A stretch of DNA of 64,000 nucleotides from Clostridiales bacterium (GTDB lineage Bacteria; Bacillota; Clostridia; Christensenellales; UBA1242). The translations under genes were made by a program, and so were the position numbers. The notes under the pieces are model-generated. The model was given only the letters and a program-made list of their open reading frames with translations. It searched no databases and had not been told where the DNA came from. The stretch is taken from assembly GCA_015069395.1 (NCBI GenBank), contig SVIR01000001.1, positions 27,268-91,267 of the forward strand, read 5' to 3'. Of the stretch, positions 23,664 to 62,629 are shown piece by piece. Each line of letters begins with the position of its first letter. Positions within the stretch are counted from its first letter, which is position 1.

Positions 23664-23677
23664 ATATCTAATATTTC

Positions 23678-25831: not shown

Positions 25832-25943
25832 ACCTTTGTATTCTAACACATTAATTTCTTTTTTCAAAATGAATTTTACGCGTCTAGTTTTGAATTCACA
25901 CAAAAGATTTTTTAATCATAAATCTAATTATAAAGGAGATATT

Positions 25944-26969: not shown

Positions 26970-27018
26970 ATCTAAAAAATATTATATAAAAAAGAACTCA
27001 GAATTTGAGTTCTTTTTC

Positions 27019-28341: not shown

Positions 28342-28592
28342 AAATCTTCTCCTTTAATATTTATAGGAACAGGGTCAACCCCTCTTTTCTTTTGCCAAGG
28401 AACACATCTAAAAATCCTCTTTACGCCAAGCCACGACCCTTTAAAGATTCCAAATCTTTCAACCGACTTTATGAAATAGTTTGAACAGGACGGAAAAAAG
28501 ATACAACTATGTGGAAGTAAAGGTGATATTCCATACTTATATAGATACACTGGTGACAAAAAGATTTTTTTAATTATTTTTTTTGCTTTCAT
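28329..28592 (-). CDS. yidD: Membrane protein insertion efficiency factor YidD
   Basis: YKYGISPLLPHSCIFFPSCSNY...G...G..R..RC.PW matches the YidD signature. Confidence 0.88.
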   Translation of the reverse strand: MKAKKIIKKIFLSPVYLYKYGISPLLPHSCIFFPSCSNYFIKSVERFGIFKGSWLGVKRIFRCVPWQKKRGVDPVPINIKGEDLWIL

Positions 28593-43170: not shown

Positions 43171-44754
43171 TTAATTGTTTTTAAATTTTTCCATATATTC
43201 TTCATAAGACATTTGCTTGTCGATTATCGTATTCTCGTCAACGATATCAATAATTCTGTTTGCAACGGTTTCAATAATTTCTTGGTCACCGGTAGCAAAC
43301 AACATTGCGCCTTTGAAGTTTATCATTCCCTTGTTGAGAGAGGTGATGCTTTCAAGATCAAGATGGTTTGTAGGTTCGTCAAGCATCAAAAAGTTTCCTG
43401 ATTCAAGCATAAGTTTTGCAAGCATACATCTCACCTTTTCTCCACCAGACAATACGTTTACTTCTTTCAAACTTTCTTCTCCAGAGAAAAGCATTCTTCC
43501 AAGCCAGCCTCTTACATAGCTTTCAGTTTTGTCTTTTGAATATTGTCTAAGCCAATCGACAATGCTGAGGTGGCAATCGTCAAAGTATTCTCTATTGTCT
43601 TGAGGAAGATAAGAATATTTGATTGTTTTTCCAAAGCGAATCATGCCACTGTCGGCATCTTCTTTTCCGGCTAAGATGTTGAAAAGGGTAGTCAAAACCA
43701 AGCTGTTTGAGGATAGAATTGCAATTTTTTGTCCGTGCTCTACTGTAAATGAAAGGTTTTTAAACATTCCGGCTTTGGTCAATTTTTCTACTTTTAAGAT
43801 CTCTTTTCCAATTTCTTGTTCATATTTAAAGTCAACATATGGATATTTTCTAGAAGAAGGTTTAAAATCTTCAATAGTCAATTTTTCTAATTCTTTCTTT
43901 CGGCTGGTTGCTTGTTTAGATTTTGAAGCATTTGCAGAGAATCTTGCAATAAAGTCTTTCAACTCTTTTGCTCTTTGTTCGGCCTTCTTGTTTTGTTCTT
44001 TAGCTTGCCTTGCTAAAAGTTGGCTTGTTTCGTACCAGAAATCATAATTCCCTAAATACATATTAATTTCGCCAAAATCTACATCACAGATATGTGTGCA
44101 AACTTTATTTAAAAAGTGTCTGTTGTGAGAAACGATAATTACGATGTTTTCAAAGTCAAGTAAGAAGTTTTCGAGCCATCTGATTGTTTTAAAGTCGAGA
44201 TTGTTTGTCGGTTCGTCTAAAACCAAAATATCTGGGTTTCCAAACAGAGCTTGTGCGAGCAATACTTTCACCTTTATTTTTGAATCAAGAGTAGACATTA
44301 GGTCATAAAAACACGACTCTTCAACTCCAAGGTTTTGCAAAAGAGACTTTGCTTCTCCCTCTGCTTCCCATCCACCAAGTTCGGCAAATTCTGTTTCAAG
44401 TTCGCCGGCACGAATACCGTCTTCGTCGCTAAAGTCTGGTTTTGCATAAAGTTCGTCTTTTTCTTTTTGAATTTCCATCAATCTTTTATGTCCAAGCAAA
44501 ACTGTGTCTAAAACTGTTTCATTGTCATATTTGTTTTGATTTTGTTCTAATACAGACATTCTTTCTCCAGGAGTAACAACAATCTCTCCTGTATTAGGCT
44601 CAATTTCGCCGGTCAAAATTTTCAAAAATGTAGATTTGCCGGCTCCGTTTGCGCCGATAATGCCATAACAATTGCCTTTTGTAAATTTTAAATTTACTTC
44701 TTTGTATAAAGTTCTTCCACCAAATGCGAGTGAAACGTTGATTGCTTGTATCAT
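43171..44754 (-). CDS. ABC-F family ATPase (two ABC domains, no TM domain)
   Basis: Two Walker A sites (the first is GANGAGKST), two LSGGE signatures and an inter-domain linker with a KEQNKKAEQRAKELKDF coiled segment. Confidence 0.9.
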   Translation of the reverse strand: MIQAINVSLAFGGRTLYKEVNLKFTKGNCYGIIGANGAGKSTFLKILTGEIEPNTGEIVVTPGERMSVLEQNQNKYDNETVLDTVLLGHKRLMEIQKEKDELYAKPDFSDEDGIRAGELETEFAELGGWEAEGEAKSLLQNLGVEESCFYDLMSTLDSKIKVKVLLAQALFGNPDILVLDEPTNNLDFKTIRWLENFLLDFENIVIIVSHNRHFLNKVCTHICDVDFGEINMYLGNYDFWYETSQLLARQAKEQNKKAEQRAKELKDFIARFSANASKSKQATSRKKELEKLTIEDFKPSSRKYPYVDFKYEQEIGKEILKVEKLTKAGMFKNLSFTVEHGQKIAILSSNSLVLTTLFNILAGKEDADSGMIRFGKTIKYSYLPQDNREYFDDCHLSIVDWLRQYSKDKTESYVRGWLGRMLFSGEESLKEVNVLSGGEKVRCMLAKLMLESGNFLMLDEPTNHLDLESITSLNKGMINFKGAMLFATGDQEIIETVANRIIDIVDENTIIDKQMSYEEYMEKFKNN

Positions 44755-45410
44755 TCTTTCTCCTTTTGAGCTGATGCCATTTGAATTTTTCTTCTTGGTT
44801 TTGCAACAGTTGCTTTTGTTTTTTCGGCAGGTTTAGTTTTTGTAGCTAGTCTTGTTGCAACCGTTTTCTGTTCTTTTTGTTTTTTCTTTTCAATAAGTTT
44901 AAGTTTTTCGATGTAAGAGAGGGTATATTTTTCTTCGAAGTCTGAAGGAAGTTTTGAAAGGTCAAAAGATTCATTAAAAAGATCTTCAAGTTTTTCAAAC
45001 ATTACTGGATCTATTTTTATAATTTCTTGAAAAGCCGAGTTTTCGCTGAAGTCAAAATTTTTAAAATCTTTCAAAATTGCTTGAGACAGTCTTAACCTTA
45101 CTTCAATGTAAAAATCAAATTTTTGTGAAAAAACTATAGAAAATTGATTAAATTTTTGATTTTTTTTGATATTTTTGATATTTTTTATTGAATTTTTTAA
45201 TTTTTTCTTAATTATTTTTTTGTCGTCAAAAATAAAATCAGGAAGTTTTACAAATTCTTCTATTTGTGACATTTCCAATCTTTCTTTAATTTTTTCTTCT
45301 GTAAATACAAAATCTGAAGGCAATGGATTGTAGCCTTTTGTTTTAAACAAATTTCCTAATTTTGGGCTGATTAGGTTTAAATAATTCAAAATTTCCAAAT
45401 TCTTGCTCAT
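44751..45410 (-). CDS. Hypothetical protein with Lys-rich C-terminal tail
   Basis: 219 aa. The stop overlaps the ABC-F start in an ATGA junction. No recognisable domain. Confidence 0.55.
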   Translation of the reverse strand: MSKNLEILNYLNLISPKLGNLFKTKGYNPLPSDFVFTEEKIKERLEMSQIEEFVKLPDFIFDDKKIIKKKLKNSIKNIKNIKKNQKFNQFSIVFSQKFDFYIEVRLRLSQAILKDFKNFDFSENSAFQEIIKIDPVMFEKLEDLFNESFDLSKLPSDFEEKYTLSYIEKLKLIEKKKQKEQKTVATRLATKTKPAEKTKATVAKPRRKIQMASAQKEKE

Positions 45411-45503: not shown

Positions 45504-45532
45504 TTGGAAAAAAACAAGAAAAAATGTATAAT
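45504..45532 (+). promoter_or_regulatory. Sigma-A type promoter of the giant gene
   Basis: TTGGAA, 17 nt, TATAAT, about 70 nt upstream of the ATG at 45600. Confidence 0.45.
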
Positions 45533-45599
45533 TAAATTGTCGAAAAATGCAAACAATATTTTTAAAATATTGGACAAAAATTTATCGTTTGGAGTTCGT

Positions 45600-48500
45600 A
45601 TGAAAAAAAGAAAAGTTCTCAGTGTTTGGAAGTCAATCTTGCTTACTTTTGCAGGAGTGCTTGGAGTTGCCGGAGTGACGGTGCTTGGAGTATATCTTAC
45701 AAAAGGTTTTGACGAAGAAAAGGTTCTCCCGGAGAGTATAGCTTTTGAACAGACGCTAGACAGTGGGCTGGGATATTTTAATTCAGAAGCAAATCGCTTT
45801 GAAGTTTCTTCGGATTTCCAAATTACTATAACAACTCCAACTGAAGGTGTTACAGAAAATGAAATTGAACTTTCATTAGACCACGGAACTTTGGACGATG
45901 GTTACATAAAAAATGATGTTATTAGAGTTCCTCAATTTGTTGAAATAGGAACCCCTTTTACAGTGCAACTTGTTACAAAAGATAATATCTCTCTTTTACA
46001 GGATTGGGTTTTTGGTGGCATTTCTACAATTACTGCAGAGTCAACAGCAGATGTAAACATTGATCACAAAAGTGCGACAATTGCTGTAGATGTTCCAGTA
46101 AAAAACATATCGGTTAAAATAGCCGGATCCGAACAAAATTTAAACGAACCGCAAAATGTAGTTGTAGGATCTTACTTCTCTCTTGAAACAATTTATTCTC
46201 CGAACGAAAGTGAAAGATTGTATAAAGAAGACTCTGCTCAAAAAGAAGTTTTCTATGATATCTTAACTACTGCGATTGACTATGATTTTGAAACCGACAA
46301 GTTTTTTGCAAAAAACAGAACTGTTGGTGAGAACAATTCAATAGTTGTTTATACTTTTAAAAATGCGTATTATCAACATGAGATTTTGACAAGGTTTGCA
46401 GCAGAAACAGATCCTGCAGACAGGTCGGCAAACATATTGGCTTATTTTAAGAGTTTAGAGAGGGAACAAGGCATTGTTGCTTATGTTTCGCGAGAGATTG
46501 ATATCAATGTTTTGGCAGTAGATGTAGCGACGGTTCAAATGCAAATTCCAACAATGAGTTCTTATGTAGACAAATATTTTACTCTTACTGCAAGCTCTGC
46601 AAAAGGCAATGCAAATCTTGATCTTGATATTCGTGATAGTAAAGGTGATAAGCTTGATTATCTTTTTGCAAACGTTGGCATAAAGATTCCAAAGGACAAC
46701 AATTTGAAAATTGTAGGAGGAAAGCTCGTTAAAGTTGAAGATGGAAAGGTTTCTGCTCCTCAAGACTATGACGACTCAATTGATTTTGCTGAAGTTGCTG
46801 ATGGTATAGAATATTATTTATTGCCAAATATCGCTCCTGCTGAGTATGGAAATTATTATTGGGATTTTGCTTCTACAGTGGAAGCTGATTATGAGTTGTT
46901 GGTTAACTTCTTCTATGAAAAAGATGGTGAATGGAAAGCCTTCTTTGGTGGAGAAGGGCAAGCAGAAAAAACTTTGACTTTCAGTACAAGACACCATTCA
47001 AACGAAGAAGATCCTTCTTGGCTTACAAACGAAGCTATAGAAATGACAATCAGTTTTGACGAAGATGGAACTGCAAATCAAGCTGTTGAAGATTTGTCTA
47101 AATTGATTAGAGGAATTGAAGCTGATAATGTTTACAAAGAGGTAAGGTATTTCTTGTTTATTGACGAAGAAGATCCAGCTGGTTTTGCAAACATAACAGT
47201 TACAGATGTTTTCAATTGTAAACCAGGAGTAGAATATACAACAAACTATCTTGGAGAAGCATTAGAAATTCCTTATACTATTGAAAGAAGCTCTTATACT
47301 TTATACGAATTGAATAGTGCACAACTTAGAGCACTGAAAAGTTTTAGTGGAAAAGTTAAAGTGGTTTTGGCAACAATCAAAACGGACGCTGACTTAAATC
47401 CAGAAATGGACGGAAATAAATATAAATTGGTTAGGGTTAGCAGACCAAAAGATGTAACGGTAGAAAGTTTATTGTCAATAGCAAATATGACACCAACATT
47501 TACATTCGATGATGTTGCAGAACAAATTGAAGAAGATTATTATCTTCCTGCAATAAACAGAAATGAAAGTGGTGCACAAAAGGATGTTGTTGACTTTAAG
47601 TTGATTTTGTCAAACAGTGAAGACCCAGAAAGCGATTCAACAAAAATTATCAATGCCTACAATTCAGGAAAATTGAAAGTTGTTTGCAAGATGGGAGAAA
47701 CAGTTGTAAATTACATAACGTTAAGAGGTTTGGTCCAAGAGACTTATGATGCAAACTCTATCACATTTACTGGAAGTTTTGCTATTGAAGAAGGTTATTT
47801 CACTCCAGGAACAAACGCTGTAGATATGAAAGGAACAAGACTTTCTCTTGAATTACAATACAACGACGGAAAAGAAGTATTTTCAAAACAAATACTTAAA
47901 GAAGGCGAACCTGACATTAATTCTTTCTATGTTTATTATCAACAGCCAGTTAGGATGGTAGGAAATTTTGAGTCTCAAAATGATCTAGATGTGAACGCTG
48001 ACGGAAAGATTGATCCTATTGAGGTTGTTAGCAGTTCTGATGGTCTTGAAATTTCTTGGGGTGGCAAAAACTTGACTTCGGACAAGCTTGAAGATACTCT
48101 TGAAAACCTTAACGATCTTCTCGCCTTCAAACTTTATGATCAGTTTGAAAAAGAAATTCCTGCCAACACGGGAGAATACTCGGTTAGATTTGTTGAAGAC
48201 ATTCCTACGGGAGAGACAGGCCTTTTAGGGTTTGACAGTTCTTATACAAAAATTCAAGCCTTTGTTTCAACTCAAGGTGTTAGCGATAGCACTACAATGA
48301 CTGTTTATGTAGTTGATAAAGAAGGAAGAATCTGCTATTCTTATGACGAAGATGGAAATCTTATATATGAAAATGATCAACCAAAACCTCTTTGTTCAAT
48401 TAGTTTAGATTTTGAAATAGTTAGTGAAGGAATTTCGTCAATTAAAAAACTCCCAGACGAATTTGAGGGAGAGTTAATTACAGATCCGACAGCCGCAAAT

Positions 48501-51500
48501 TATTCTTATGTAGACAATGGCAATATTGGAAGTGTGACAATTAGAAAAACTGTTAAGGCCGAAGAAAAAATCGAACTTGATAAATGGGTTAAGATTTATA
48601 TAGAAAAAACTAGTGAAGGCGTAACGGAAGAAGTTGAAGATACGGGCAGAGTATTTATGCTGGACGACGACTATGTGGCAACATTTAGTTCTAACACAAA
48701 AGTAGATATAATGAAAATGATTTCGTTTACTGATGCGAATGGAAATACGAGCAAGTATGATGGAACAGACAATCTGGACAACTGGAAGGGAAAGGCCATC
48801 AAAGAAATCAATGTTAAAAATCCGTTTAAAAATGACACCAGAATGCAATTTTTGATTCGCGATGCAAACGGATCGTTGTATGAAGTTTCGTTGATCTTTG
48901 AGTTTAGAGCAGATCTTTCAATTACTCCAACATTTGCTACTTATTACGAAGAAAACAAAGAGTATTTGGTGAAACAGGGCACAGCAGAAGGTGTTTTTGC
49001 AGACGAAAAGTATAGTCTTTTGAAATATTTGTCTTTGACTTCTTCTAGTGAAGAATATTCTTGGCTAACAGGTTTGGCAAACTTTTTGACTGAAGGCAAC
49101 AACCTTTTCTATTGTGAGCAAGAAGATATTTGTTATTTAGAAGTGGTTACCGACGAGGGCGGCGTTGCTGTTGATATCAATCTTGTGATTGCTCCACTTT
49201 ATCAATTTAAGACGATCACTGTAACTATATATTATGGTGTGAATTGTTCGTTTGCTTGTAGTACAACCTTCTCACTTTATGTAAATCCTAATATCGTGGC
49301 AGAACAACAATCTGAAGAAGTAGAGTTGAAAGGTTTTAACAGTCCAAATGTTAGACAATTTTACAAGTTCTATAAAGCAACAGATTATATCAAAGGAGTA
49401 AAAACAGAACTTGACACGGAAATGGTATTTGACAATATTTCTCAAGAACAATATTTGTCAATAGACGAATACAACAATATGGCTGTAGTTTCAGAAAAAA
49501 CCATAAACATTGATCTTGGAGAAACGATAAATCAAGAGTTTTCTGTAAAAGCTCAAGATGCCACAGAAACCTTAGTTTTGGTTGATGCAGTTAAGGTTTT
49601 GGTTGATGGAACAATTATACCTTGCTCATTTGACGATGAAGGTGTAAGTAAACATTTGATTTTAGGTTTAGAGATGTGTTATGGTTCTGATGCATTAGAA
49701 ACTGCAACATCTTTAATTAGAAGAGTCCTTGAAAGTGGAGAAGAAGATGTACAAGTTGTTTTGTACAATGGAGAGCCAATGCTTTTGTTGTATGAAAACT
49801 CAAAATATTCAACTCCTGATGGAATGTCAAATGTTTCAATTGATGTAAGTTCTATTAATGGAGAAATGAGAGATTTTGGTGGCGACTTGGCCACAAACAG
49901 CTTGTCAACTTATCTTGACGCCACAGACAATTCGTTTAGAATTAGTGTCGACATAAACGGTTTAAAATTAAACATTTTGCTCAGGGCTGTAATATCAAAA
50001 GTTGGAAGCAAATTTGTTCATTACGAAGACGACACAGGCGATATAAATTTCGCAGATAAAGATTTAGCTATATTGTTGGGTTCTATAGAAACCCTTGAAG
50101 AAAACGACATTTATCAAAAAATGTATGCAGGACAAGAATATGAGATAGTCTTTGAAGAATCAATAGCAGATTATCTTCCAGGTTTCTATTACAATGACAG
50201 TTTATTGGGTGTTTCTGAAAACTATTCAAGAATCTCTCTTTCAGTTGCAAAAGTGGAAGGTGGAGAAAGCAATTTGGCATCTATAACAAGTGAAAACAAA
50301 CTTAAACTCAATCACCTTTCTTCAACCTATGAAGATATTTATGTAGTGTTGAAAATTGAATTGACTGGCTATACAATGGAACCATTTAGCTGGTATTACA
50401 GAATTATGGTATTGCCAAGTTTTGAAATGGCAGATGTAACATATCCTTATGCTGACGAAGTTGAACATTTGGACGAAACGACAGAAGGTTTCAATTCTCA
50501 AACCTTGAGTTATGAAATTGATTTAGCAGAAACACTTAGCTATGAAAACAGCAAGTATGCCGATGCGACTAGATTTGGAAACGCATTGTTTATCGATGCT
50601 GGAGGAAACTTTTCTCAAACAAAGACGGTCGAAACTTCTTATAATGTTTTAAAGGTTTACGTAAATGGTGAAGTTGCTGACAATTGGAGTGCATATTTCA
50701 CTTATGAGTTTGACGAAGATATGTTCAAAATAAGACTTTTGCAAAGAGATGTTCAATTGAATGTTGTAATTCAAAGACATTTGACTAGCGAAGGTTTTGA
50801 AATGGTTGGAAGCTCTCAAAACTATACGTTCTCATTCAATCAAAGTTCAAATTATAAATTTAGAGTGACTCAAAATATAGGTGGGACGGATAAACAATTT
50901 GAAGGCGAAAGTGGAGATGTGTTTAATACAACAATCAATGCCGGAGATGGAGATGTAACATTTAAAACAGAATTGTATATTTCAAGCAATAACACTCAAA
51001 CAAAAGTTAATGATTATCAATTTGCAATTAAAGGCTCTTCTGAAGAATTGCTTAAAGCTCTCAAGTTTAAGTATTATATGCCAAAGGGCACAATCGTATA
51101 TTTGAGCGATTATACAACGCAGGACAAAATCCTTGAAAACGATCTTTTGATTAGCGAAAATTGGTTAAGCGAAGTGACAACGGAATATGATGCTGAAAAC
51201 TTGCAAATTGTTGTAGATTCTGTAACATATTATGTGAAGAAAGCCTCTGTTCAAATGTGTTTTGCTTATGTTGATTCAAACAATCTTTTGACGATTGTTC
51301 CTCAAGAAAACATTGAAGAGGACAAAACAATTTCTTTGTTGTGTTACACAACAGAAAAGGTAGTCTTTGAAATAGATGTAAAGGTTGAAAGTTATCTTGA
51401 AGCAGTTGTAAATTCAGATACAACATTGCTTGGAGGAAGAGAATATTCATTTGATGGAGAAATTTTTAAAAAGATCGGCTTCAAAGAAGGAAAACAGCCA

Positions 51501-54500
51501 GAGGGCGTAACTATCACAAACTTTGAAGTTGAGCTAAAGAACGGCGATATCGAATATCGTGAAGGATTTACGTTGGCAGATTTGATAATGATCGAAGATG
51601 GCTTGGCAGGAAAGATTTCTTTTGCTCACCTCGCCCAAGACGTAACATTTGAATTTGGTGGAAAATTTAGTCTGTCAAATAGCGCAACCTATACTTTCGG
51701 TTTTGCTTTGACAGTAGGGAAGAGCTTTGATCTTGAAAAAGAATATAGATATAGTCAATCGAAAACTGAGATCGAAACCAGTGGTCTTTCGGTTGATGTC
51801 GACAATACATTGATTTCGGCTCTCATTGGTTCTGGTTCAACGACAGGTTTTGCTTACGCAGAAAACTTTGTTGCTAAGCAAGTTGGAGAAGAAGGTTGGG
51901 CTGAAGAAAGTTTGTCTATAGGATATACTTTCAACTCGAAAGATTTGTTTGAATTTGAGGCGATTTATTCTTACTATGTACAACCAAACGTAACATTAGA
52001 TCCAAATTATCCAGCTCCAGATGGGGTTAATGAAGTTTCTGAAAAGACGGAATACGTTTCAACGAGTGCAAACGCAGATCCAACCTCAGTTGCTAAATAT
52101 ATTTCAGATTCAATAGAAAACTTCTTTGGTTCGAAAGCCAAATTTGCAATAGAAAATAGAGTTGTTGCAGAAAAACAAGGTGGATACACAGGTGAGTTGG
52201 TTTGGGATATAAATGTATCTTCAATAAGTTCAAATGCTGTTGTTTTTGTTATGAATGGAGCTTCAATAGCAAAAACAATTACAAATTCGACCTCAGACAA
52301 GAGAATTTCCACCTCTACAGATGTTGATCTAAAATTTGGTCTTTCAGACACATCTTCAAACGGCACGGTTGTGTTTGATGTTACTGTAAATGGTGTTGCA
52401 AAACTTTATAGCGTTACAATTGTGGCAGGAAGCATAATAAAAGTTGATACTTATCCTACAAACTACACAAACGACGGAGAAGTGTTGTTTGCAGAAGACC
52501 TATCGGCTTATGAAGAAAAGGAAATTTTCAAGCAAGATAGAATCTTGAGTTATACATTAAATTCAAGTGCTACAAATGGAAAATATTATGTAGTAGTTAA
52601 AAAAGGAAACGTTACAGAAATAATCGATATTGACAATACAACAATTAATAGTCAAGTTAATAAAGATCTTGGAAAAAGCTTTGTAGGATATGAATATGCA
52701 GGAACATACTCAGATAAAGATCTTGAAACTAGAGCAGAAGGCATTTATGCTCAAGCTCCAGTAATAACAAGCAGAATTGTTGCCTCTTATTACAATGGTG
52801 ACAAATTAAAGCTAGCAGATTCTGATATTTTGCTCAATGGAACATCAGTTTCAGATGTTGAAATTTCAACAACAAATCTCAATCAAGTACAAGAATGGTC
52901 TATTAGAATTTCTGGAATTTCGACAACGTTTGTTTATAAAACATATCTTACTCTTGAATTGAGCGTTAAAGGAGATGCTCAAGTAAAAGATGGAAAGGTA
53001 TCAACATACACAACAGTAGAGCTTAAAGCTGGAGAAACAGTAAATTTGTTGTCTTTGACGTCATTCAAAATTACAAATCAAAGAACAAACTCTCTTTATA
53101 CTTCTTTCGGAGATTGTGAAGGAACTGTAGATTTAGCTGTTTATGGATTGGATATATCTTGGACAGAAGACGATGGCTCTGTAGCAGATATCTATGATAG
53201 ATATTTTAAGGCATTTGAAGAAAACGGTATCAAATATCTAACAGGTATTTCTCCTTATTATGGAGTTTCAACAGACAATAAATATCTTAGACTTTCACAA
53301 CCTATAGGAAGCAGTCAGATTACTGATTATACAATTCAAGCACTAGGAGCAGGAAACGACGGAAATCACGTCTTAATGAAACTTACATATATAGTTGACA
53401 TTGGAAGTGGAACTGTTTCAGTAAGTTATGATTTATTGTTTAAAGTTGTTCCAAACACAAATATTGAATTTAAAACATTGCCTAATGAAATTGCTACAAT
53501 AGAAGCTTCAAAAGAAATAATTAACTTTTCTTCTATCGCAAGCAACTATGTTGATCCATACAAGCTCTCAGGAATAACTTCAGATGCAACTCTTTGGCTC
53601 TATGGTGCAGCAAATGAAAACAATGATGCGATTTTGGCTTATATGTATGGTTCTTCAACAAATTTAGCAAGTCAATTTACCTATACTTATACAATCGGAA
53701 CTCCTCAAAATTATAATGACTTTGATCAGTTAGACGATTCAACAGATGGCACCCTTATAGACTCAGGCTGGGTGGATGGTTCAGGCAAGTACACTGCAAG
53801 TTCGGGACAAAGCTCTGTTAGCTTGAGAGTTCCTGAATTAGAACTTGGAGCAAAACATTTTGTGCTTACAGCAATAAACAAATATGGCTATCAAATGAAA
53901 TTCTACTTTGATTTGACAGCACCTATCAATCCACAGGTTTCTCTTAGCACTTCAACATTTGTTGAAGGCAGCACATTGGCATTCGGTATCAAATATAAAG
54001 AAGTGTCAATTGAAAAGACAAGTGAAGGCTTGGTTCAACACGATTCATTTAAATATGAAAGCAAGGTTGTTACTGGTGTAACTGCAACAAACTATTATAC
54101 AGATCAAATCAAAATTACTGGAGCTATAGGTGGAACAGAAAGCTACGTCAACCAAATCATTTTAACCCTTGAAGATAATGGTATGACTTATGAGAAAACT
54201 ATTACCCCAGTAGCAGTTTCTGAAATTGCAGTTGTTAGAGTCTCAGGAGAATGGACAGATATAGAAGGTACAGATACTCGTACATTTGAAGTTGAATATT
54301 TGGCCATGACAAGCAAGACGATAAATGTTTCTGTTTCTTTGAATAGTGGAAATGATCCGGCATTGATGGGGTATTCTTTAAATGTTCAGTACATTACAAA
54401 AGATGGATCGACTGCACTTACAGAAGAAATAGCCTTGCCAACAAACAGTCACAAAGCTTCACCAAATGACATTACTCCAAGTTTCACATATACATCAGGT

Positions 54501-57113
54501 ACTGGGCCTTCAGCAATAATAGCGACTCCACAAATTACTGGATTGTTTACAGGTATTGACGCATTTGCTTATAGTCAAACTGATGCGATTGATTCTAATT
54601 CAATTTTGAAATCAAATATAGGAGACATTTATGTTTCAAAAATTGAATTGTATCACAAAAATGAAAAAATTGGATCTGTTTCAGGAACAGCAAATAATTT
54701 GGTTACTGCAAGTGGTTGGACTTTTGTAAACTCTGATGGAACAAAGACAACAGGCGTGGCTTGTACAGAAGAAATTGTTATGACAATTCCTCATGTCAAC
54801 GGAATACTTTATGGAGCAAGCAACAATTTGGACAATGTAAGACTCGACATATATTTGACAAAAGGATCCTACACAAGCGTAATATCAAAAGATATTATTT
54901 TGCAAAAGATTGCTCCAACATTGTTTACCGAGACGGAAGTGTTGGACGGAAGTTCTCCGGTTAAAGCTTCTGGAACAGGAATTCCAACAATTTATAACGA
55001 TACCTTGGAGATAGAACTTGCTCCAAACACAAGTGTAACGTTTGCTATTCACAACAGTGCGATTACTTCATTTGGTACTGATGTGAACGGAAGAACAACA
55101 ATCAATGGTTCAACGATAGCTAATATGATTACATTATCAAACGACAGAGATTATACTATTACGGAGTATGTTGGAATTACAAACAATATAGTTGGCCTGA
55201 CTGAAAACTTGACGGCTGGAGATTCTTTCTACATTGGAAGTCCAGCAACACTCCCTGCAGGAGCAACATTTAAATACAACAACTCAACTATTTCTGCTAC
55301 AGGCACGATTGCGACTTATAGTTCTATTACTTTGAATCTTGACAGCATAAACGAATTGTCTGCTAACAGACAAAAGAATGTAAGGTTGTATTTCTTGTAT
55401 TCTGAAAACGGACAAACTTATCAACATCAAGAAATGTTTACAATCACACAAGCTTATAAGACAATTACAAGTAGCAGTGATATTACAGCAACGGATTATA
55501 TCAAAATGACAAAGGGTGGAAGTCATTATTATGTAATCCCTTATGAAAATTGGGCTACGAAGGTAGAAGTTGATGGCACAGTGTTGGGTAGTGGTGATGC
55601 TTATAAATTCTACTTCAAGATTGAAAACAACGCAACGGGTGGTTCTGGTTTTGTTGACGAAAACGGAACTATTACAACGACAGAAAACTTCAAAGTAGGG
55701 TCGTATTATGTAGCCGTTGAGGTGTATGTGAAAGTTTCTGGTGCAAACGCACAGTTTGAAGAAAACAACACAACATTGCATCTCGGAACTATAAACATAA
55801 GCTTGGGAACAGAGCCAACAGGAAGCAACACTTCTAGTGCAGGGGTCTACGAATATGGCAGCAACAACCTTGTAGTTCTGGCGGATGGTTGGACAAGTAG
55901 CAAAACCTTGACCTCTGTTTCATTGGCTAGTGCGACTGATAAAGGGGCTTTTGCTGTGGGTGTTAATGAAACGTTAGACTTCAAACAAATGTTTGACGAT
56001 TCATATGCAAGCACAACAAATGAAAATTATCATTTGGTTAAGATAGGTCAAGAATATATTACAACAAACAATCTTAATAGCTATTCGTTTGGAACTGCAG
56101 GCAGTTACGATTTAATCTTTGTTAAGACATATCGAAATAGTGGAATATACACGACACAAGTGCTTTCTGCAACAGTGATGGTGTATTCTACTACATCAAC
56201 TGAACAAAGATTTGACGTCGCAAAGAATAATGTTGAAACAACTTTGACAGGCTCTTGGTATGAAAGAAATCAATCGGGGGTTACAGAATCAACAGGATTT
56301 AAAGAAACCGTTGACGGAATTTATGAGAAATCATATTTAGAAACTTCTGATGGAGTAAAACTTATAGACATTGATTGGTTTGTATATTCTGCAGAAGCTG
56401 AAAAAGAATTTGCGCTTTATTCTTTGACAACTTATCAGTTTGCAGATTTGTTTAATGCTTCAACTGCAGAAGTATATGAAGTAAAATATACAGATGCAAG
56501 TAAAACAACTGTTTCAACCATTTCAAAAGAATCTTCTGTTATGTTTGAAAATGGAGTAGACTACCAAGAAGAGCGTACCTATTATGTAAAAATTGGCTCA
56601 ACTGCTACTTTGTATACAATAGTCTTTAAGATTATCTCTGACGATGTGACAGAATATAAACAAATTATTTCTTCGACAGCAAGTGAAAAGAGTTTGGTAG
56701 AAAGCTATATCAATTATATTCATTCGGGTGCAACAATTCAAATGTTGAATGATTCAACAAATGAATTGACTTCAAATGCTGATATAACAAGAGCAGCAAA
56801 TTATTATACTCAAAAATATTTAGTAACAACAGCTGACGAGCATCTTGTTGTCTATGAGTTTGAGTTCTACAGTTATAGCGAAGCAAAAGAGATAACCTTC
56901 TCAACAGAAGCAAATAGAGCTTTTTCTCTTGCAGAACTTGATTCAACAGTAAGATCAGAGGTTGGAGCAGGAGCAACAGATATAGTTTCATATTATGACT
57001 CAACTAGCTTGGAACAAGCTTACACAATCAACTTGGAAGAAAGCAGAGAGGTTACATATTATGTAAAAGCTGGTGAAAGTTTCTACTTAATCACTTTTCA
57101 ACTTAATATCTGA
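45600..57113 (+). CDS. Giant (3837 aa) N-terminally membrane-anchored surface protein, function unknown
   Basis: An uninterrupted 11.5-kb frame. The start is the ATG after GGAG, giving MKKRKVLSVWKSILLTFAGVLGVAGVTVLGVYL (signal anchor). The remainder is T/S/N/Y/E/D-rich and beta-type. There is no LPXTG or other wall-anchor motif at the C-terminus. Confidence 0.85.
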   Translation: MKKRKVLSVWKSILLTFAGVLGVAGVTVLGVYLTKGFDEEKVLPESIAFEQTLDSGLGYFNSEANRFEVSSDFQITITTPTEGVTENEIELSLDHGTLDDGYIKNDVIRVPQFVEIGTPFTVQLVTKDNISLLQDWVFGGISTITAESTADVNIDHKSATIAVDVPVKNISVKIAGSEQNLNEPQNVVVGSYFSLETIYSPNESERLYKEDSAQKEVFYDILTTAIDYDFETDKFFAKNRTVGENNSIVVYTFKNAYYQHEILTRFAAETDPADRSANILAYFKSLEREQGIVAYVSREIDINVLAVDVATVQMQIPTMSSYVDKYFTLTASSAKGNANLDLDIRDSKGDKLDYLFANVGIKIPKDNNLKIVGGKLVKVEDGKVSAPQDYDDSIDFAEVADGIEYYLLPNIAPAEYGNYYWDFASTVEADYELLVNFFYEKDGEWKAFFGGEGQAEKTLTFSTRHHSNEEDPSWLTNEAIEMTISFDEDGTANQAVEDLSKLIRGIEADNVYKEVRYFLFIDEEDPAGFANITVTDVFNCKPGVEYTTNYLGEALEIPYTIERSSYTLYELNSAQLRALKSFSGKVKVVLATIKTDADLNPEMDGNKYKLVRVSRPKDVTVESLLSIANMTPTFTFDDVAEQIEEDYYLPAINRNESGAQKDVVDFKLILSNSEDPESDSTKIINAYNSGKLKVVCKMGETVVNYITLRGLVQETYDANSITFTGSFAIEEGYFTPGTNAVDMKGTRLSLELQYNDGKEVFSKQILKEGEPDINSFYVYYQQPVRMVGNFESQNDLDVNADGKIDPIEVVSSSDGLEISWGGKNLTSDKLEDTLENLNDLLAFKLYDQFEKEIPANTGEYSVRFVEDIPTGETGLLGFDSSYTKIQAFVSTQGVSDSTTMTVYVVDKEGRICYSYDEDGNLIYENDQPKPLCSISLDFEIVSEGISSIKKLPDEFEGELITDPTAANYSYVDNGNIGSVTIRKTVKAEEKIELDKWVKIYIEKTSEGVTEEVEDTGRVFMLDDDYVATFSSNTKVDIMKMISFTDANGNTSKYDGTDNLDNWKGKAIKEINVKNPFKNDTRMQFLIRDANGSLYEVSLIFEFRADLSITPTFATYYEENKEYLVKQGTAEGVFADEKYSLLKYLSLTSSSEEYSWLTGLANFLTEGNNLFYCEQEDICYLEVVTDEGGVAVDINLVIAPLYQFKTITVTIYYGVNCSFACSTTFSLYVNPNIVAEQQSEEVELKGFNSPNVRQFYKFYKATDYIKGVKTELDTEMVFDNISQEQYLSIDEYNNMAVVSEKTINIDLGETINQEFSVKAQDATETLVLVDAVKVLVDGTIIPCSFDDEGVSKHLILGLEMCYGSDALETATSLIRRVLESGEEDVQVVLYNGEPMLLLYENSKYSTPDGMSNVSIDVSSINGEMRDFGGDLATNSLSTYLDATDNSFRISVDINGLKLNILLRAVISKVGSKFVHYEDDTGDINFADKDLAILLGSIETLEENDIYQKMYAGQEYEIVFEESIADYLPGFYYNDSLLGVSENYSRISLSVAKVEGGESNLASITSENKLKLNHLSSTYEDIYVVLKIELTGYTMEPFSWYYRIMVLPSFEMADVTYPYADEVEHLDETTEGFNSQTLSYEIDLAETLSYENSKYADATRFGNALFIDAGGNFSQTKTVETSYNVLKVYVNGEVADNWSAYFTYEFDEDMFKIRLLQRDVQLNVVIQRHLTSEGFEMVGSSQNYTFSFNQSSNYKFRVTQNIGGTDKQFEGESGDVFNTTINAGDGDVTFKTELYISSNNTQTKVNDYQFAIKGSSEELLKALKFKYYMPKGTIVYLSDYTTQDKILENDLLISENWLSEVTTEYDAENLQIVVDSVTYYVKKASVQMCFAYVDSNNLLTIVPQENIEEDKTISLLCYTTEKVVFEIDVKVESYLEAVVNSDTTLLGGREYSFDGEIFKKIGFKEGKQPEGVTITNFEVELKNGDIEYREGFTLADLIMIEDGLAGKISFAHLAQDVTFEFGGKFSLSNSATYTFGFALTVGKSFDLEKEYRYSQSKTEIETSGLSVDVDNTLISALIGSGSTTGFAYAENFVAKQVGEEGWAEESLSIGYTFNSKDLFEFEAIYSYYVQPNVTLDPNYPAPDGVNEVSEKTEYVSTSANADPTSVAKYISDSIENFFGSKAKFAIENRVVAEKQGGYTGELVWDINVSSISSNAVVFVMNGASIAKTITNSTSDKRISTSTDVDLKFGLSDTSSNGTVVFDVTVNGVAKLYSVTIVAGSIIKVDTYPTNYTNDGEVLFAEDLSAYEEKEIFKQDRILSYTLNSSATNGKYYVVVKKGNVTEIIDIDNTTINSQVNKDLGKSFVGYEYAGTYSDKDLETRAEGIYAQAPVITSRIVASYYNGDKLKLADSDILLNGTSVSDVEISTTNLNQVQEWSIRISGISTTFVYKTYLTLELSVKGDAQVKDGKVSTYTTVELKAGETVNLLSLTSFKITNQRTNSLYTSFGDCEGTVDLAVYGLDISWTEDDGSVADIYDRYFKAFEENGIKYLTGISPYYGVSTDNKYLRLSQPIGSSQITDYTIQALGAGNDGNHVLMKLTYIVDIGSGTVSVSYDLLFKVVPNTNIEFKTLPNEIATIEASKEIINFSSIASNYVDPYKLSGITSDATLWLYGAANENNDAILAYMYGSSTNLASQFTYTYTIGTPQNYNDFDQLDDSTDGTLIDSGWVDGSGKYTASSGQSSVSLRVPELELGAKHFVLTAINKYGYQMKFYFDLTAPINPQVSLSTSTFVEGSTLAFGIKYKEVSIEKTSEGLVQHDSFKYESKVVTGVTATNYYTDQIKITGAIGGTESYVNQIILTLEDNGMTYEKTITPVAVSEIAVVRVSGEWTDIEGTDTRTFEVEYLAMTSKTINVSVSLNSGNDPALMGYSLNVQYITKDGSTALTEEIALPTNSHKASPNDITPSFTYTSGTGPSAIIATPQITGLFTGIDAFAYSQTDAIDSNSILKSNIGDIYVSKIELYHKNEKIGSVSGTANNLVTASGWTFVNSDGTKTTGVACTEEIVMTIPHVNGILYGASNNLDNVRLDIYLTKGSYTSVISKDIILQKIAPTLFTETEVLDGSSPVKASGTGIPTIYNDTLEIELAPNTSVTFAIHNSAITSFGTDVNGRTTINGSTIANMITLSNDRDYTITEYVGITNNIVGLTENLTAGDSFYIGSPATLPAGATFKYNNSTISATGTIATYSSITLNLDSINELSANRQKNVRLYFLYSENGQTYQHQEMFTITQAYKTITSSSDITATDYIKMTKGGSHYYVIPYENWATKVEVDGTVLGSGDAYKFYFKIENNATGGSGFVDENGTITTTENFKVGSYYVAVEVYVKVSGANAQFEENNTTLHLGTINISLGTEPTGSNTSSAGVYEYGSNNLVVLADGWTSSKTLTSVSLASATDKGAFAVGVNETLDFKQMFDDSYASTTNENYHLVKIGQEYITTNNLNSYSFGTAGSYDLIFVKTYRNSGIYTTQVLSATVMVYSTTSTEQRFDVAKNNVETTLTGSWYERNQSGVTESTGFKETVDGIYEKSYLETSDGVKLIDIDWFVYSAEAEKEFALYSLTTYQFADLFNASTAEVYEVKYTDASKTTVSTISKESSVMFENGVDYQEERTYYVKIGSTATLYTIVFKIISDDVTEYKQIISSTASEKSLVESYINYIHSGATIQMLNDSTNELTSNADITRAANYYTQKYLVTTADEHLVVYEFEFYSYSEAKEITFSTEANRAFSLAELDSTVRSEVGAGATDIVSYYDSTSLEQAYTINLEESREVTYYVKAGESFYLITFQLNI

Positions 57114-57188
57114 GGATAGTCGAAATATTTTCTAAAATAAATAAAAAGCATTTGAATAAAATGCTTTTTTTATGCAAACAATTTTTCT

Positions 57189-57860
57189 ATGGATAAGATA
57201 TATTTTTTAGATAGTTTTTTAGACAACAAGCCAAGGGCTATTTGGGATATAGTTTTTGCAAATATTATTGCGATTGTTGCAATAATTCTGTCTGCATTTA
57301 TCCCGATTTTTAGCCTAGCTTTGCCAATAATTCTTTTCATTTATCTTGAAACGGGGCTTTGGGGATTTGTATTAAAAAAAGAGACTGGCAAAAGTGTAAA
57401 GTTTGAGGATATATTTTTACCATTAAAAAACATTATAAAAGCATTTTGTGTTTTTGTTTTGAAAACGGTTATGTTTATTTTTGGAACGGTGCTTTTTATT
57501 GTTCCAGGAATCATTTCTGCAACCACTTATGCTTTTACTCCCATGATAATTTTTGAGAGCCCTGATTTAGATGCAAAAGGAGTGCTGATGCTTAGCAAAG
57601 AGCTTTCGAAAGGGTATCGGTTAAAAATTTTGTTTGCTTTTTTGCTTTGTCTCACATCTATTTGTGCAACTTTATCTTTGGCTTTTTATATAGTTTTCAT
57701 TTTCGATGTTTTTTTTGAAGTGGCAAGCTTTGTTTATATTGTAGTTGTTCTAACCGTAGGAATTTTTGAGACTCTTGTAATGGCTATTCCTATGTATCAA
57801 ATAGTAATAGTTGATTGCTTTATTGACAGCAAAAACAAAAAAGTTTCTTGCAAAGATTAA
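57189..57860 (+). CDS. DUF975-like integral membrane protein
   Basis: Multi-TM with the central pattern ...FIVPGIISATTYAFTPMIIFESPDLDAKGVLMLSKELSKGYRLKILF, which I recognise from DUF975 proteins. Confidence 0.55.
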   Translation: MDKIYFLDSFLDNKPRAIWDIVFANIIAIVAIILSAFIPIFSLALPIILFIYLETGLWGFVLKKETGKSVKFEDIFLPLKNIIKAFCVFVLKTVMFIFGTVLFIVPGIISATTYAFTPMIIFESPDLDAKGVLMLSKELSKGYRLKILFAFLLCLTSICATLSLAFYIVFIFDVFFEVASFVYIVVVLTVGIFETLVMAIPMYQIVIVDCFIDSKNKKVSCKD

Positions 57861-57925
57861 AAGCAAGTCTTTTTTGTTGAAATTTTTTTTAATATTTTAT
57901 ATAATCTTTTTGTAAGGAGAACAAG

Positions 57926-58468
57926 GTGGATTATAAAGACTTTACAAAAAGAGATAAGGCTTTCAAAGGTTTTATTGAATATAGAAAAGAAGTTTTAAAT
58001 AGTGGGGCAGATTTCCCAAATGTTTTTGTTGATCTTTGTACAAAGGCAATAGAAGGAGATTGTATAGCTCAAGATTGTGTGGCATACTTTTTCAACAAAG
58101 GAGTTCCTGATTATTTAGTTCAAAACTATGAATATTATCTCTCTTGGCAAATTCTCGCCGGAGCAAACGGAAATGAGTTTGCTCTTGAGAAGTTGGAATT
58201 CTTTTTGAATTCGGGATTGCAAGAGATAATCAACGACGAAGAAATTTTAAAAACGGCTATGCTCAGAAGAAATCTAACAAAAGAAAATGCTGTGTTTGTA
58301 ATTACAAATCTCATTTGTGAAGGGATTGTTGACGAATTGAAGATAAATCCTAAAGATCTTATTGATATAAAGTCCAAGCCTTCTAGATATTCTCCAGAAA
58401 AGAATAGAGCTTTTCTTTCAGCAATGGAAAGATGTTTGCAAAATGTTGTTGACTTCTTGGTTAGTTGA
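57926..58468 (+). CDS. Hypothetical helical protein (possibly Sel1/TPR-like)
   Basis: 180 aa with a GTG start after AAGGAGA. The segment AQDCVAYFFNKGVPDYLVQNYEYYLSWQILAGANGNEFALEKLEFF is loosely Sel1-repeat-like. Confidence 0.4.
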   Translation: MDYKDFTKRDKAFKGFIEYRKEVLNSGADFPNVFVDLCTKAIEGDCIAQDCVAYFFNKGVPDYLVQNYEYYLSWQILAGANGNEFALEKLEFFLNSGLQEIINDEEILKTAMLRRNLTKENAVFVITNLICEGIVDELKINPKDLIDIKSKPSRYSPEKNRAFLSAMERCLQNVVDFLVS

Positions 58469-58928
58469 TGTCCAAAATAAAGCCTTCGCAAGAAAAACTT
58501 TCTGCAAAAATACTGCTAATGGCAGTAATTATACTATTACAAATCTCAAACTCTCCACTTTTGATTGAGAGCAACATCAATTTTATAGTCAAAGTGTTTT
58601 GAATCGCAATCAAACTTAAAAAAGCATTATTTTCATTTTCCACACAAACAAACTTGTGTGGTTTTTTCTTTCCAAATTTTTCTTGCAACATCTTTTCCGA
58701 ATAAACTATCTTTGAGCTAAGCTCAGCAGAGTTGATTTTTTTACATAGTTTTTTTAGGCATGCCTGCATCTTTTCAAGCAAAATTAAAATTTCTCCGATT
58801 AAAAGATTAAACTCTTCTTCTTCCAATCGAATAAATACAAAGCCCTTATTTTTCAATGCCTTCGCATAAGCTTTTGCCATCTCTTCAAAATTTTCTGGCA
58901 AGAGTTGGTCGTTGTAAGTGTTTTCCAT
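58461..58928 (-). CDS. Hypothetical protein (155 aa)
   Basis: Start set at MENTYNDQ, because the upstream TTG extension would contain the terminator hairpin at 58962-58994. No recognisable domain. Confidence 0.45.
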   Translation of the reverse strand: MENTYNDQLLPENFEEMAKAYAKALKNKGFVFIRLEEEEFNLLIGEILILLEKMQACLKKLCKKINSAELSSKIVYSEKMLQEKFGKKKPHKFVCVENENNAFLSLIAIQNTLTIKLMLLSIKSGEFEICNSIITAISSIFAESFSCEGFILDIN

Positions 58929-58961
58929 ATAATCTTTTATGACGTAAAAATTTTTTATGAC

Positions 58962-58994
58962 AAAAAAAGAACACAATTTTGTGTTCTTTTTTTT
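58962..58994. terminator. Bidirectional rho-independent terminator after the coupling-protein gene
   Basis: A7, then GAACAC-aatttt-GTGTTC, then T8. Confidence 0.6.
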
Positions 58995-60978: not shown

Positions 60979-61075
60979 AAAAAATCCCCCCAAAATTCAT
61001 TATTAATAATATTTTAAACTTAATCAACAAAAAATGCAAGCATTAGCCCAAGATTTTGAAAAGAACAACAAAAAA

Positions 61076-61891: not shown

Positions 61892-62629
61892 ATGTTTAAT
61901 TGGAGCGAAGCGGATAAAATTGCGATTCCTGTGATGATGTTGATTGTGGCTGCACTGGCAGTTGCACTTGCTTTTTTGTTGCGTGGTAAAAGCGAGAAAA
62001 TAAAAAACATTCCGCTGCATATTATTGCTGCTCTTATGATAGGGTTGGAGATTGCAAAACAGCTGTACTTTCTTATTTCAGGAACATATCATTTGGGTGT
62101 AATTCCAGTACACTTTTGCTCATATATGATTATGATTATTTCTCTTGCGCAGTGGCTTCCAAAGAAATATTCAACATTTTTTCAAGTCCCTGCAGTGGTG
62201 TTTTCAATATTAATATGGGCGTTGCTTCTGATTCATCCTAGTTCTATGATAGGGAATTACAGTGCAACAATGTTTCAAAGTTTTCCAGGCTTTCACAGCT
62301 TTTTCTTTCATTCTTTGGTTGTTTGTTATGCGGTGTTTAGACTTGTGCTTTGCAAACATAGTTTGAAATGGATTTATCTTCTAAGCTTCCCTGTCTGCGT
62401 ATTGTTTTATGCGGCATATGCTGTGCCGGTTGCTTTTAAATTAGGCTTTAACTATATCAATATCTTATATAGTTATTTCCAACCGCTTGAGAACTTTCGG
62501 TTAAGTTGCGGGCAAGTGGCGTACGATATTTTATTATTTTCTATTGCAATTGCGGTTAGTTGCTTGATTTTTGTTGTTTGGTTTTTTATAATTAAATTAA
62601 TAAACAAAAGGAGAAAGAAAAATGCCTAA
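61892..62629 (+). CDS. Polytopic integral membrane protein, YwaF/TIGR02206-like
   Basis: 245 aa with 6-7 hydrophobic segments, similar in layout to 1395-2189 and to the next gene. Confidence 0.5.
   Translation: MFNWSEADKIAIPVMMLIVAALAVALAFLLRGKSEKIKNIPLHIIAALMIGLEIAKQLYFLISGTYHLGVIPVHFCSYMIMIISLAQWLPKKYSTFFQVPAVVFSILIWALLLIHPSSMIGNYSATMFQSFPGFHSFFFHSLVVCYAVFRLVLCKHSLKWIYLLSFPVCVLFYAAYAVPVAFKLGFNYINILYSYFQPLENFRLSCGQVAYDILLFSIAIAVSCLIFVVWFFIIKLINKRRKKNA

Follow-up and report, generated by a model that had tools for sequence, protein, structure and literature searches.

The giant gene of the 64,000-nucleotide stretch of Clostridiales DNA analyzed here (referred to as the window) was read as encoding a type-II-anchored extracellular chain of immunoglobulin (Ig)-like domains, which represents an undescribed UBA1242-related family and would act as a contact fibre of fixed length, a reading to which we assign a rough probability of 55%. 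An earlier note on this DNA had described the 11.5-kb gene as encoding a membrane-anchored, apparently non-repetitive surface protein with the composition of an adhesin. The gene is not an isolated oddity, as it belongs to a large family collinear from end to end. Giant Ig-like surface proteins as such are already known. What appeared to be new was the family itself, together with an anchor polarity opposite to that of LPXTG adhesins, the lack of repeats and the end-to-end orthology as a core gene.

The giant gene is genuine and intact. The open reading frame (ORF) extended over 45504-57113 on the forward strand with 3,869 codons without a stop, whereas the base composition of the window predicts one stop per approximately 13 codons and would produce such a frame by chance with a probability of ~1e-131. 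The start codon ATG at 45600 was backed by the motif GGAG at 45591-94 and by the N-termini of the homologues (MKKRxVLSLWK), and the resulting 3,837 codons accounted for 18.0% of the window, in agreement with the single uninterrupted frame covering 18 percent that had been noticed earlier. The protein was identical to GenBank MBE7075495.1, 'MAG: hypothetical protein [Clostridiales bacterium]', and the exact protein has been deposited in both NCBI and JGI. Seven short contigs, taken from separate metagenome assemblies at JGI and ENA, matched the window over 53295-58465 at 99.97-100% identity, indicating that the 3' third of the frame (last 3.8 kb) had been assembled independently. An assembly artefact or a decaying pseudogene might be suspected, as the source is a metagenome-assembled genome (MAG) and a distant homologue in a Logan assembly (L007) is broken by a frameshift. 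The probability of chance occurrence given above, the identity of the independent assemblies in the 3' part, the deposited copies in NCBI and JGI and the existence of over 100 orthologues that are intact and similar in length leave such an explanation next to no chance. The broken homologue, a member of the type B subfamily described below, was split into ORFs of 1,085 aa and >1,698 aa at 10700-10780 of its contig by a frameshift within GAAGAAGAAGG, which may be an error of sequencing or a genuine slippery run.

The near-consensus promoter that the earlier note had ascribed to the gene was found upstream as TTGGAA-17-TATAAT, and the -10 region TTGTATAAT upstream of the orthologues was kept in the related loci L027, L011 and L016. 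The terminator that had been placed at 57153-57180 was recovered in part: a hairpin followed by a T-run does exist, but it lies at 57144-57168, slightly offset from the claimed position, and is statistically weak (fold z-score of -1.8). The hairpin was not called by a consensus scan biased toward GC.

The giant protein appears to be membrane-anchored with a type-II topology (N-terminus in and C-terminus out), as judged from sequence and structural models. The Kyte-Doolittle hydropathy peaked at residues ~6-35, and AlphaFold2 modelled a helix at residues 5-33, which was the sole hydrophobic helix. The sequence MKKRK precedes this helix (inside) and an acidic stretch follows it (outside), fitting the positive-inside rule. 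These features supported the N-terminal signal anchor proposed earlier. A regular-expression search found no LPXTG-like motif in the protein, confirming that a C-terminal wall-sorting motif is lacking. The C-terminus, ...FYLITFQLNI, carried none of the set of LPXTG, hydrophobic stretch and charged tail that marks sortase-anchored proteins such as MSCRAMM adhesins. As the anchor is an N-terminal transmembrane helix, the polarity of the protein is the reverse of that of LPXTG adhesins. The acidic composition rich in T/S/N/Y/V was also confirmed; D and E residues numbered 558 against 285 of K and R, T, S, V and E were the commonest residues, and T, S, V, N and Y were abundant.

Structure prediction with AlphaFold2 using family alignments was applied to residues 1-1200 and 2638-3837, covering 2,400 of the 3,837 residues. 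The model of residues 1-1200 showed a mean predicted local distance difference test score (pLDDT) of 86.1 and a predicted template-modelling score (pTM) of 0.51, and consisted of domains of ~100-120 residues, some of which carried helical inserts. Foldseek comparison of this model with the PDB returned 324 matches at E <= 1e-3, all of which were chains of Ig-like domains, including NUP210 (1.4e-19), ciliary central-pair proteins, protocadherins, the S-layer proteins Sap and EA1 and the base of the appendage protein GhpA, as well as alpha-2-macroglobulin and complement proteins. The model of residues 2638-3837 (pLDDT 82.2 and pTM 0.56) matched hydin-like proteins, the neck and base of GhpA, NUP210, contactin, DSCAM and EA1/Sap/SbsB, and among viral models it matched Ig-like phage proteins. 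The beta-sandwich build assumed from the composition was thus supported by structure prediction and Foldseek, as each of the two modelled stretches of 1,200 residues is a chain of Ig-like domains. The fold similarity was considered to be architectural rather than specific homology because the template-modelling scores (TM-scores) were ~0.1. No enzyme, lectin, toxin or adhesive fold was found among the Foldseek matches for the modelled residues. By extrapolation from the models, the whole protein is estimated to contain roughly 35 Ig-like domains, each of which would be distinct in sequence.

The claim that long repeats were absent held at the levels of DNA and primary sequence, as Tandem Repeats Finder (TRF) detected no tandem repeat in the giant gene and BLASTP of the protein against itself gave the diagonal only, without internal repeats. 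In contrast, profile-profile comparison revealed one cryptic repeat at the C-terminus. All-against-all hhalign of 160-residue slices of the family alignment paired residues 3521-3680 with 3681-3837 at 95% probability (E = 1.5e-8). Only a few weak internal similarities were found in addition, such as 1521-1680 with 2081-2240 at 83%. As the slice comparison gave this one strong repeat alone, the description as non-repetitive was correct at the sequence level.

Searches of Pfam, NCBIfam and PDB sequences with the giant protein gave no credible match, and the protein thus did not fall into a well-described adhesin family, the outcome that the earlier note had named as refuting its view. Likewise, no match was obtained in a search of PDB chains with the profile of 16 full-length family members or in a Pfam scan of 12 diverse members (~48,000 residues). 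Relatives were found by other means. When queried with 1,280 aa or with an N-terminal profile, a word-indexed database (5.8-billion) gave no more than a single distant match, P0001, with 24% identity over the first 700 residues, or short fragments; giant proteins seem to be poorly reached by a word index. When the profile built from the P0001 alignment was searched exhaustively against 1.84 billion cluster representatives, 230 clusters (50% identity) were found at E <= 1e-3, among which 183 were at <= 1e-30. The window protein was itself a cluster representative and matched the profile with 1342 bits. Approximately 120 of the 230 clusters were full length (3,200-5,670 aa), and every match began at the N-terminus. 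The phmmer search with the window protein showed that most full-length relatives were collinear with it from residue 1 to ~3,835, indicating one orthologous giant protein rather than shuffled domains. An open frame of >3,000 codons was maintained in every full-length member, which, together with the reduced size of the carrier genomes, argues for strong selection.

In the alignment of 120 sequences, identity was 0.36-0.40 at residues 1-200 and about 0.2 elsewhere, with a moderately conserved body and indel-rich regions at 1800-1900, 2800-3000 and, above all, 3400-3837. Conservation therefore peaked beside the anchor and was lowest at the distal end, the last ~440 residues being the least conserved. 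The most conserved module, at residues ~34-170, contained the motifs GGF, P..I.F, dF.lTI.T.TE.VT, LS, GyIsdgvI.VP, PF.V.L, WI.GGIS.L.A.S and IAVDVPV. The window protein possessed all the features of the family, namely the anchor, the ~140-aa proximal module with IAVDVPV and collinearity over >3,000 residues. Two subfamilies were distinguished by their N-termini: type A, to which the window protein belongs, begins with MKKRxVLSLWK, and type B, including P0001, P0003 and P0073, begins with MRFFKIFL/MKFxTFLKIF.

Variation among strains was followed in the cluster P0092, in which 12 full-length variants from different samples were 98.2-99.97% identical with a length of 3,461 or 3,464 aa, and the substitutions were modestly enriched in the C-terminal third. 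These near-identical variants of fixed length indicated neither variation in repeat number nor swapping of C-terminal cassettes; the length variation typical of adhesins, which a comparison of strains might have revealed, was not seen. Between species, the protein of P0013 was ~36% identical to the window protein, while ABC-F and VirD4 encoded at the same P0013 locus showed 95% and 70% identity, respectively. The giant protein thus seems to evolve fast between species, as expected if exposed, while its length and domain order are kept. Judging from sequence comparisons, the proteins appear to be orthologues making up a family not described before, with the window protein as founding member and with vertical inheritance at a constant site of the core chromosome.

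The variable distal end also raised the question of a polymorphic toxin or contact-dependent inhibition (CDI) protein, that is, a filament carrying a variable C-terminal toxin with an immunity gene downstream. The low conservation of the C-terminal ~440 residues and the small genes that follow agree with such an arrangement, which we nevertheless regard as highly improbable. The C-terminus was modelled confidently as a beta-sandwich plus small repeated domains with no match to a toxin fold, it was conserved within the close clade and among the P0092 strains (98-99.9% identical, without swapping), and no pre-toxin, LXG, Rhs or haemagglutinin-repeat signature was found in the giant protein or 12 relatives.

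The window corresponds to the chromosomal oriC region and contains parB, parA, gidB, gidA, mnmE, jag, yidC, dnaN, dnaA and a recF-like gene, followed up to the giant gene by genes for a 979-aa CvpA-domain protein, mraW, an ftsL-like gene, a PASTA-containing penicillin-binding protein (PBP), a Zn-peptidase, glyS(-) and ABC-F(-). The GC skew switched its sign at ~31-32 kb, and the GC content of the giant gene was not anomalous. A pattern scan of GTDB species genomes based on a 7-sequence alignment detected 18 loci, hosted by uncultured Clostridia, Clostridiales and Eubacteriales gut MAGs from human, mouse, rumen, rabbit and others. When the neighbours in the window were searched by tblastn against these and further loci, the order mraW-ftsL-PBP-Zn-peptidase...glyS(-)-ABC-F(-)-giant(+) was found in at least 15 loci with 27-46% GC.

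Full contexts were drawn for the loci of six relatives. The membrane protein reported downstream of the giant gene was present (m223), although its label as DUF975 was below threshold (E = 0.039; score of 14 bits, cut-off 34.8). Homologues of m223 were located downstream of the giant gene in L028, L032 and L034, and those of the following soluble helical protein u180p, which gave no Pfam match, were found with 63-65% identity in L027 and L034 and 27-31% in L028 and L032. Both proteins consequently recur beside giants of type A as well as type B. The orphan coupling ATPase of a type IV secretion system (T4SS) was confirmed by Pfam as VirD4/TraG-like; it carries two N-terminal transmembrane helices, and its true start is likely the ATG located 15 nt inside the ORF. 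The gene occupied the same position in L027 and L034 with 70-78% identity and was missing near the giant gene in L028-L030. A phospholipase D (PLD)-type cardiolipin synthase gene (PLDc) was located directly downstream of the giant gene in L027, L029, L030 and L034, and in the last of these its start codon shares a base with the giant stop codon at position 27013; the window has no cardiolipin synthase gene there, and m223 takes that place. Co-occurrence with the downstream genes was hence only partial: homologues of m223 and u180p accompany the giant gene even in the divergent subfamily, but the VirD4-like ATPase is limited to the close clade and most relatives carry cardiolipin synthase directly downstream instead. 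The strand of u180m relative to its neighbours was flipped in L034 (29694-30155, +) when compared with the window and L027, constituting a local inversion of a single gene. Five independent metagenome assemblies (L001, L004, L005, L006 and L008) ended within 22 bp at 58000-58022, inside the 180-aa ORF of u180p and beside a small hairpin (58003-18), while three assemblies started at 56686-56711. No repeat explaining these contig ends was found in a search, and the cluster may mark a strain-variable junction.

Table 1. Features of the giant gene and its neighbourhood. Positions refer to the window.
Feature	Position	Strand	Basis or remarks
ABC-F ATPase	43171..44754	-	divergent, conserved upstream neighbour; 77-95% identity in at least 15 loci
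Lys-rich 219-aa ORF	44751..45410	-	divergently transcribed from the giant gene
Sigma-70-type promoter, TTGGAA-17 nt-TATAAT	45504..45532	+	10/12 consensus matches
Shine-Dalgarno GGAG	45591..45594	+	5 nt ahead of ATG; read from sequence
Giant gene	45600..57113	+	3,837 aa, 425 kDa, pI 4.36; 18.0% of window
Residues 1-1200, predicted anchor helix followed by ~10-11 Ig-like beta-sandwich domains	45600..49199	+	AlphaFold2 and Foldseek
Predicted N-terminal signal-anchor helix, residues ~5-33	45612..45698	+	hydropathy, AlphaFold2 helix; kept in family
Most conserved module, residues ~34-170	45699..46109	+	conservation profiles
Residues 2638-3837, predicted further Ig-like beta-sandwich chain	53511..57110	+	AlphaFold2 and Foldseek
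C-terminal cryptic repeat, membrane-distal	56160..57110	+	sub-units end YYVK.G..Y.ITF; occupancy ~0.5
AT-rich intrinsic-terminator-like 10-bp hairpin, AAAAGCATTT-GAATA-AAATGCTTTT, then T-run	57144..57171	+	hairpin 57144-57168
m223, 223-aa polytopic membrane protein	57189..57860	+	hydropathy; weakly DUF975-like
u180p, 180-aa soluble helical protein	57926..58468	+	recurrent downstream partner
u180m, 180-aa protein	58461..59003	-	close clade only; 60-64% identity in L027 and L034
VirD4/TraG-type coupling ATPase	58993..60993	-	Pfam T4SS-DNA_transf 4e-55, TraG-D_C, TrwB_AAD_bind

The presence of the VirD4/TraG-like gene 2 kb downstream, its conservation beside the giant genes of L027 and L034 and the adjacent tRNA-Arg gene would suit an adhesin of a conjugative or type IV secretion element, similar to PrgB. 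However, no other T4SS gene, including VirB4 and relaxase, was found within the window, so that the VirD4-like gene stood there as an orphan outside any T4SS or integrative and conjugative element (ICE) cluster. In at least 15 loci the giant gene lies close to oriC within a conserved core gene order, most of the distant relatives have no VirD4 nearby, the GC content is normal, and there were no flanking repeats. The conserved position in L027 and L034 indicated that the VirD4-like ATPase is a stable chromosomal gene of the clade rather than the remnant of an ICE, and a role of the giant protein in conjugation is very unlikely.

DnaA encoded in the window shared 89% identity with its counterpart in 'Candidatus Caccovivens sp.' and 83% with the one in Ca. 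Caccovivens faecavium. Caccovivens corresponds to GTDB UBA11517 in the family UBA1242 of the order Christensenellales, and its type genome is 1.1 Mb with 34.2% GC (PMC8035907). If the genome has this size of 1.1 Mb, the giant gene would occupy ~1% of the DNA. Members of UBA1242 have reduced genomes of 0.67-1.6 Mb, are devoid of amino-acid, nucleotide and lipid biosynthesis as well as standard transporters, and possess an incomplete glycolysis, while sporulation genes are retained; an obligate symbiotic or parasitic life has been predicted for them, in which they may draw metabolites from partner cells (PMC12306168). We infer a similar dependence on a partner for the organism of the window.

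The sporulation genes SpoIIE, Spo0A (Spo0A_C), SpoVG and DUF1540 were indeed found in related loci. These genes, along with the retention of sporulation in UBA1242 (PMC12306168), could point to a sporulation-associated surface structure, either a spore appendage or a tether between mother cell and forespore. Nevertheless, they lie within 10 kb in some loci only, the promoter of the giant gene looks like the sigma-A rather than the sigma-E/K/F/G type, and searches of Pfam, NCBIfam and PDB did not link the protein to any known protein of the coat, exosporium or spore appendages. We consider that this explanation has a low probability.

Comparison with known systems clarified which features are shared. 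Fibrillar adhesins (Monzon et al. 2021, PMC8286594) resemble the giant protein as long, monomeric, anchored Ig-like stalks that are acidic and rich in T/S/N/V, with the working end presumed to be distal to the anchor in both. Attachment to the cell surface would be achieved through the N-terminal transmembrane helix, a mode of anchoring seen in a minority of fibrillar adhesin-like proteins (PMC8286594). In contrast to these adhesins, the giant protein has no Pfam stalk family (neither in the protein itself nor in 12 relatives, the chain being Ig-like in structure), no tandem repeats and no known adhesive domain, and it is encoded by a single-copy core gene with end-to-end orthology instead of a variable accessory gene.

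Ebh/Embp, SasC and Bap are giant adhesins of Firmicutes that hold functional tips away from the wall and depend on near-identical repeats whose number differs between strains. Periscope proteins are also very large Gram-positive proteins with a functional tip away from the wall, but they contain arrays of near-identical repeats that vary between strains (PMC9704523); the giant protein lacks such arrays and is constant in length. Neither identical tandem repeats nor variation in their copy number were detected by TRF, self-BLASTP or comparison of the 12 P0092 variants. Sap and EA1 of Bacillus anthracis and SbsB of Geobacillus are, like the giant protein, Firmicutes envelope proteins composed of consecutive Ig-like domains, and their structures (PDB 9g93, 8opr and 4aq1) matched the models at 6e-14 to 2e-6. 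However, they are proteins of 600-900 aa with S-layer homology (SLH) domains that form two-dimensional lattices, whereas the giant protein is about five times longer and has no SLH domain; no Pfam match to SLH or CWB2 was obtained for it or the 12 relatives. Assignment to sortase-anchored adhesins, periscope proteins or SLH-type S-layer proteins was accordingly rejected, as LPXTG, tandem repeats and SLH, respectively, were lacking.

GhpA, the grappling hook protein, and SprB are giant surface proteins of Bacteroidota. GhpA (5,898 aa) forms a 240 nm appendage of fixed length for cell-cell contact and is composed of 'slightly varying' Ig-like domains (10.1101/2024.01.29.577165). It shares with the giant protein (3,837 aa) the extreme size and the Ig-like chain, and Foldseek matched its structures (PDB 9flp and 9fly) to the models at 1.6e-13 to 3.4e-12. 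On the other hand, GhpA is a substrate of the type IX secretion system (T9SS) whose signal peptide is cleaved and whose C-terminus bears a sorting domain, and it forms a heptamer anchored on the outer membrane, while the giant protein is anchored by a transmembrane helix, occurs in Clostridia and shows no sequence homology to GhpA. No Por_Secre_tail or other Pfam match was present in the giant protein, and its host is classed in Clostridia. The best fold matches were given by the scaffold proteins NUP210 (PDB 7r5k_10, 1.4e-19) and hydin (PDB 9ijj, 4e-14), in which non-identical Ig-like domains are likewise set in fixed positions, NUP210 also being a single-pass membrane protein. These are nevertheless eukaryotic proteins of intracellular or luminal location without sequence similarity to the giant protein, and the TM-scores were ~0.1.

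The main rival to a contact fibre is a structural component of the envelope, such as an S-layer-like coat tethered to the membrane, a scaffold that spans the wall or a molecular ruler. The domain-by-domain orthology with a constant length across strains, the pTM values of 0.51-0.56 suggesting a defined geometry between domains, the location in the core genome next to mraW-ftsL-PBP, which serve division and the wall, and the absence of an identified adhesive domain all speak for such a component, as do the Foldseek matches to Sap, EA1 and SbsB S-layers and to NUP210 and hydin-like scaffolds. However, no SLH, CWB2 or other wall-binding module was found by Pfam in the window protein and 12 relatives, and the matches to S-layer proteins were no better than those to cadherins and Ig-type cell-adhesion molecules, their TM-scores being around 0.1. 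At deep divergence the distal end varies, as would be expected of an exposed interaction tip, and a single transmembrane helix would be unusual as the anchor of a lattice. We hold this alternative to be unlikely, yet with an appreciable chance of being correct.

For the contact fibre, we infer that the giant protein is exposed at the surface, extended and engaged in contact or adhesion. It would be expressed from its own sigma-A promoter and inserted by Sec through the uncleaved signal-anchor, with the conserved proximal module (residues ~34-170) seated at the membrane or wall. The remaining domains would cross the wall and reach past it, forming a fibre of fixed length, about 100-150 nm if extended; the upper value of ~150 nm is an estimate scaled from the length of GhpA. 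The distal, more variable and repeat-bearing C-terminus may then contact a partner cell, host mucus or a particle, and the recurrent downstream genes for the DUF975-like membrane protein and the small helical protein may assist the giant protein. GhpA shows that Ig-like chains can form contact appendages of uniform length, which we counted as support by analogy.

Several points weigh against the contact fibre. No recognizable adhesive or ligand-binding domain was found using Pfam, NCBIfam and PDB profiles and Foldseek on the 2,400 modelled residues, and for this reason the word 'adhesin' used in the earlier note remains conjectural, although the Ig-like chain agrees with it. The pTM of 0.5 and the position-specific conservation of the domains would also be compatible with an envelope structure that is compact or assembled laterally. 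As the models span 2,400 residues, a non-Ig domain may be present within residues 1201-2637, where no sequence profile match was obtained. The signal-anchor may be cleaved, and the assignment of the MAG to UBA1242 seems plausible from the similarity of DnaA as its single ground. The readings as artefact or pseudogene, ICE/T4SS adhesin, polymorphic toxin and spore appendage were each contradicted by the features tested.

Several other features of the window and related loci were recorded. The 979-aa protein encoded at 33555-36494 (+), just upstream of mraW, carries a CvpA (colicin V production) membrane domain at its N-terminus together with a long tail that is acidic and helical, and an 881-aa counterpart is located at the same position in L029. 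Three membrane proteins of the TMEM164 family were encoded within the 64 kb (1395-2189, 61892-62629 and 62622-63395), two of them in tandem, and the type-B loci L007 (1364-3565) and L033 encode fusions of a TMEM164 domain with an ABC ATPase. The TMEM164 family is best known from eukaryotes, and its density in the window is notable. L033 also contained prophage genes at 20276-28450, including those for a terminase large subunit and a P22-like portal, 2 kb downstream of the type-B giant gene of P0003. An integrated island of ~8 kb was located at tRNA-Ser(tga) (15482-23663), where GC drops to 0.26-0.30. The island is flanked by attL/attR-like 50-nt direct repeats (15564-15613 and 23614-23663, 98% identical), with a third, inverted copy at 2515-2590. 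It carries genes for a serine recombinase of the large type (15556-17082, -) and a pair of C5 DNA methylases (18961-21001, -), as well as two uncharacterized ORFs and the gene for an uncharacterized protein of 618 aa.

The family adds to unannotated protein space on a large scale, as Pfam covers none of the roughly 4,000 residues of each member, and it serves as a counter-example to the notion that bacterial surface proteins of giant size arise through recent amplification of repeats. The interest of the giant gene lies in its context of a reduced genome with a probably partner-dependent life. More speculatively, and with a small chance of being right, the protein could be the core of a contact organelle in a Firmicutes lineage that has converged on the partner-dependent life of Patescibacteria. 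A tether of ~35 domains would in that case dock a cell with a ~1-Mb genome to a partner bacterium or host and, together with m223, the small helical proteins and the VirD4-type ATPase (the last in the Caccovivens clade), hold a junction for the uptake of metabolites or macromolecules. UBA1242 and related Christensenellales are widespread in the guts of human, mouse, ruminant, rabbit and chicken. For partner contact in such organisms the giant gene provides a concrete and testable candidate, and is the best candidate for the contact organ of the lineage. As it would occupy ~1% of such a genome, is intact and collinear across more than 100 divergent lineages and encodes a chain predicted to project from the surface, it must serve a need of these cells and is the obvious first target for studies of contact.

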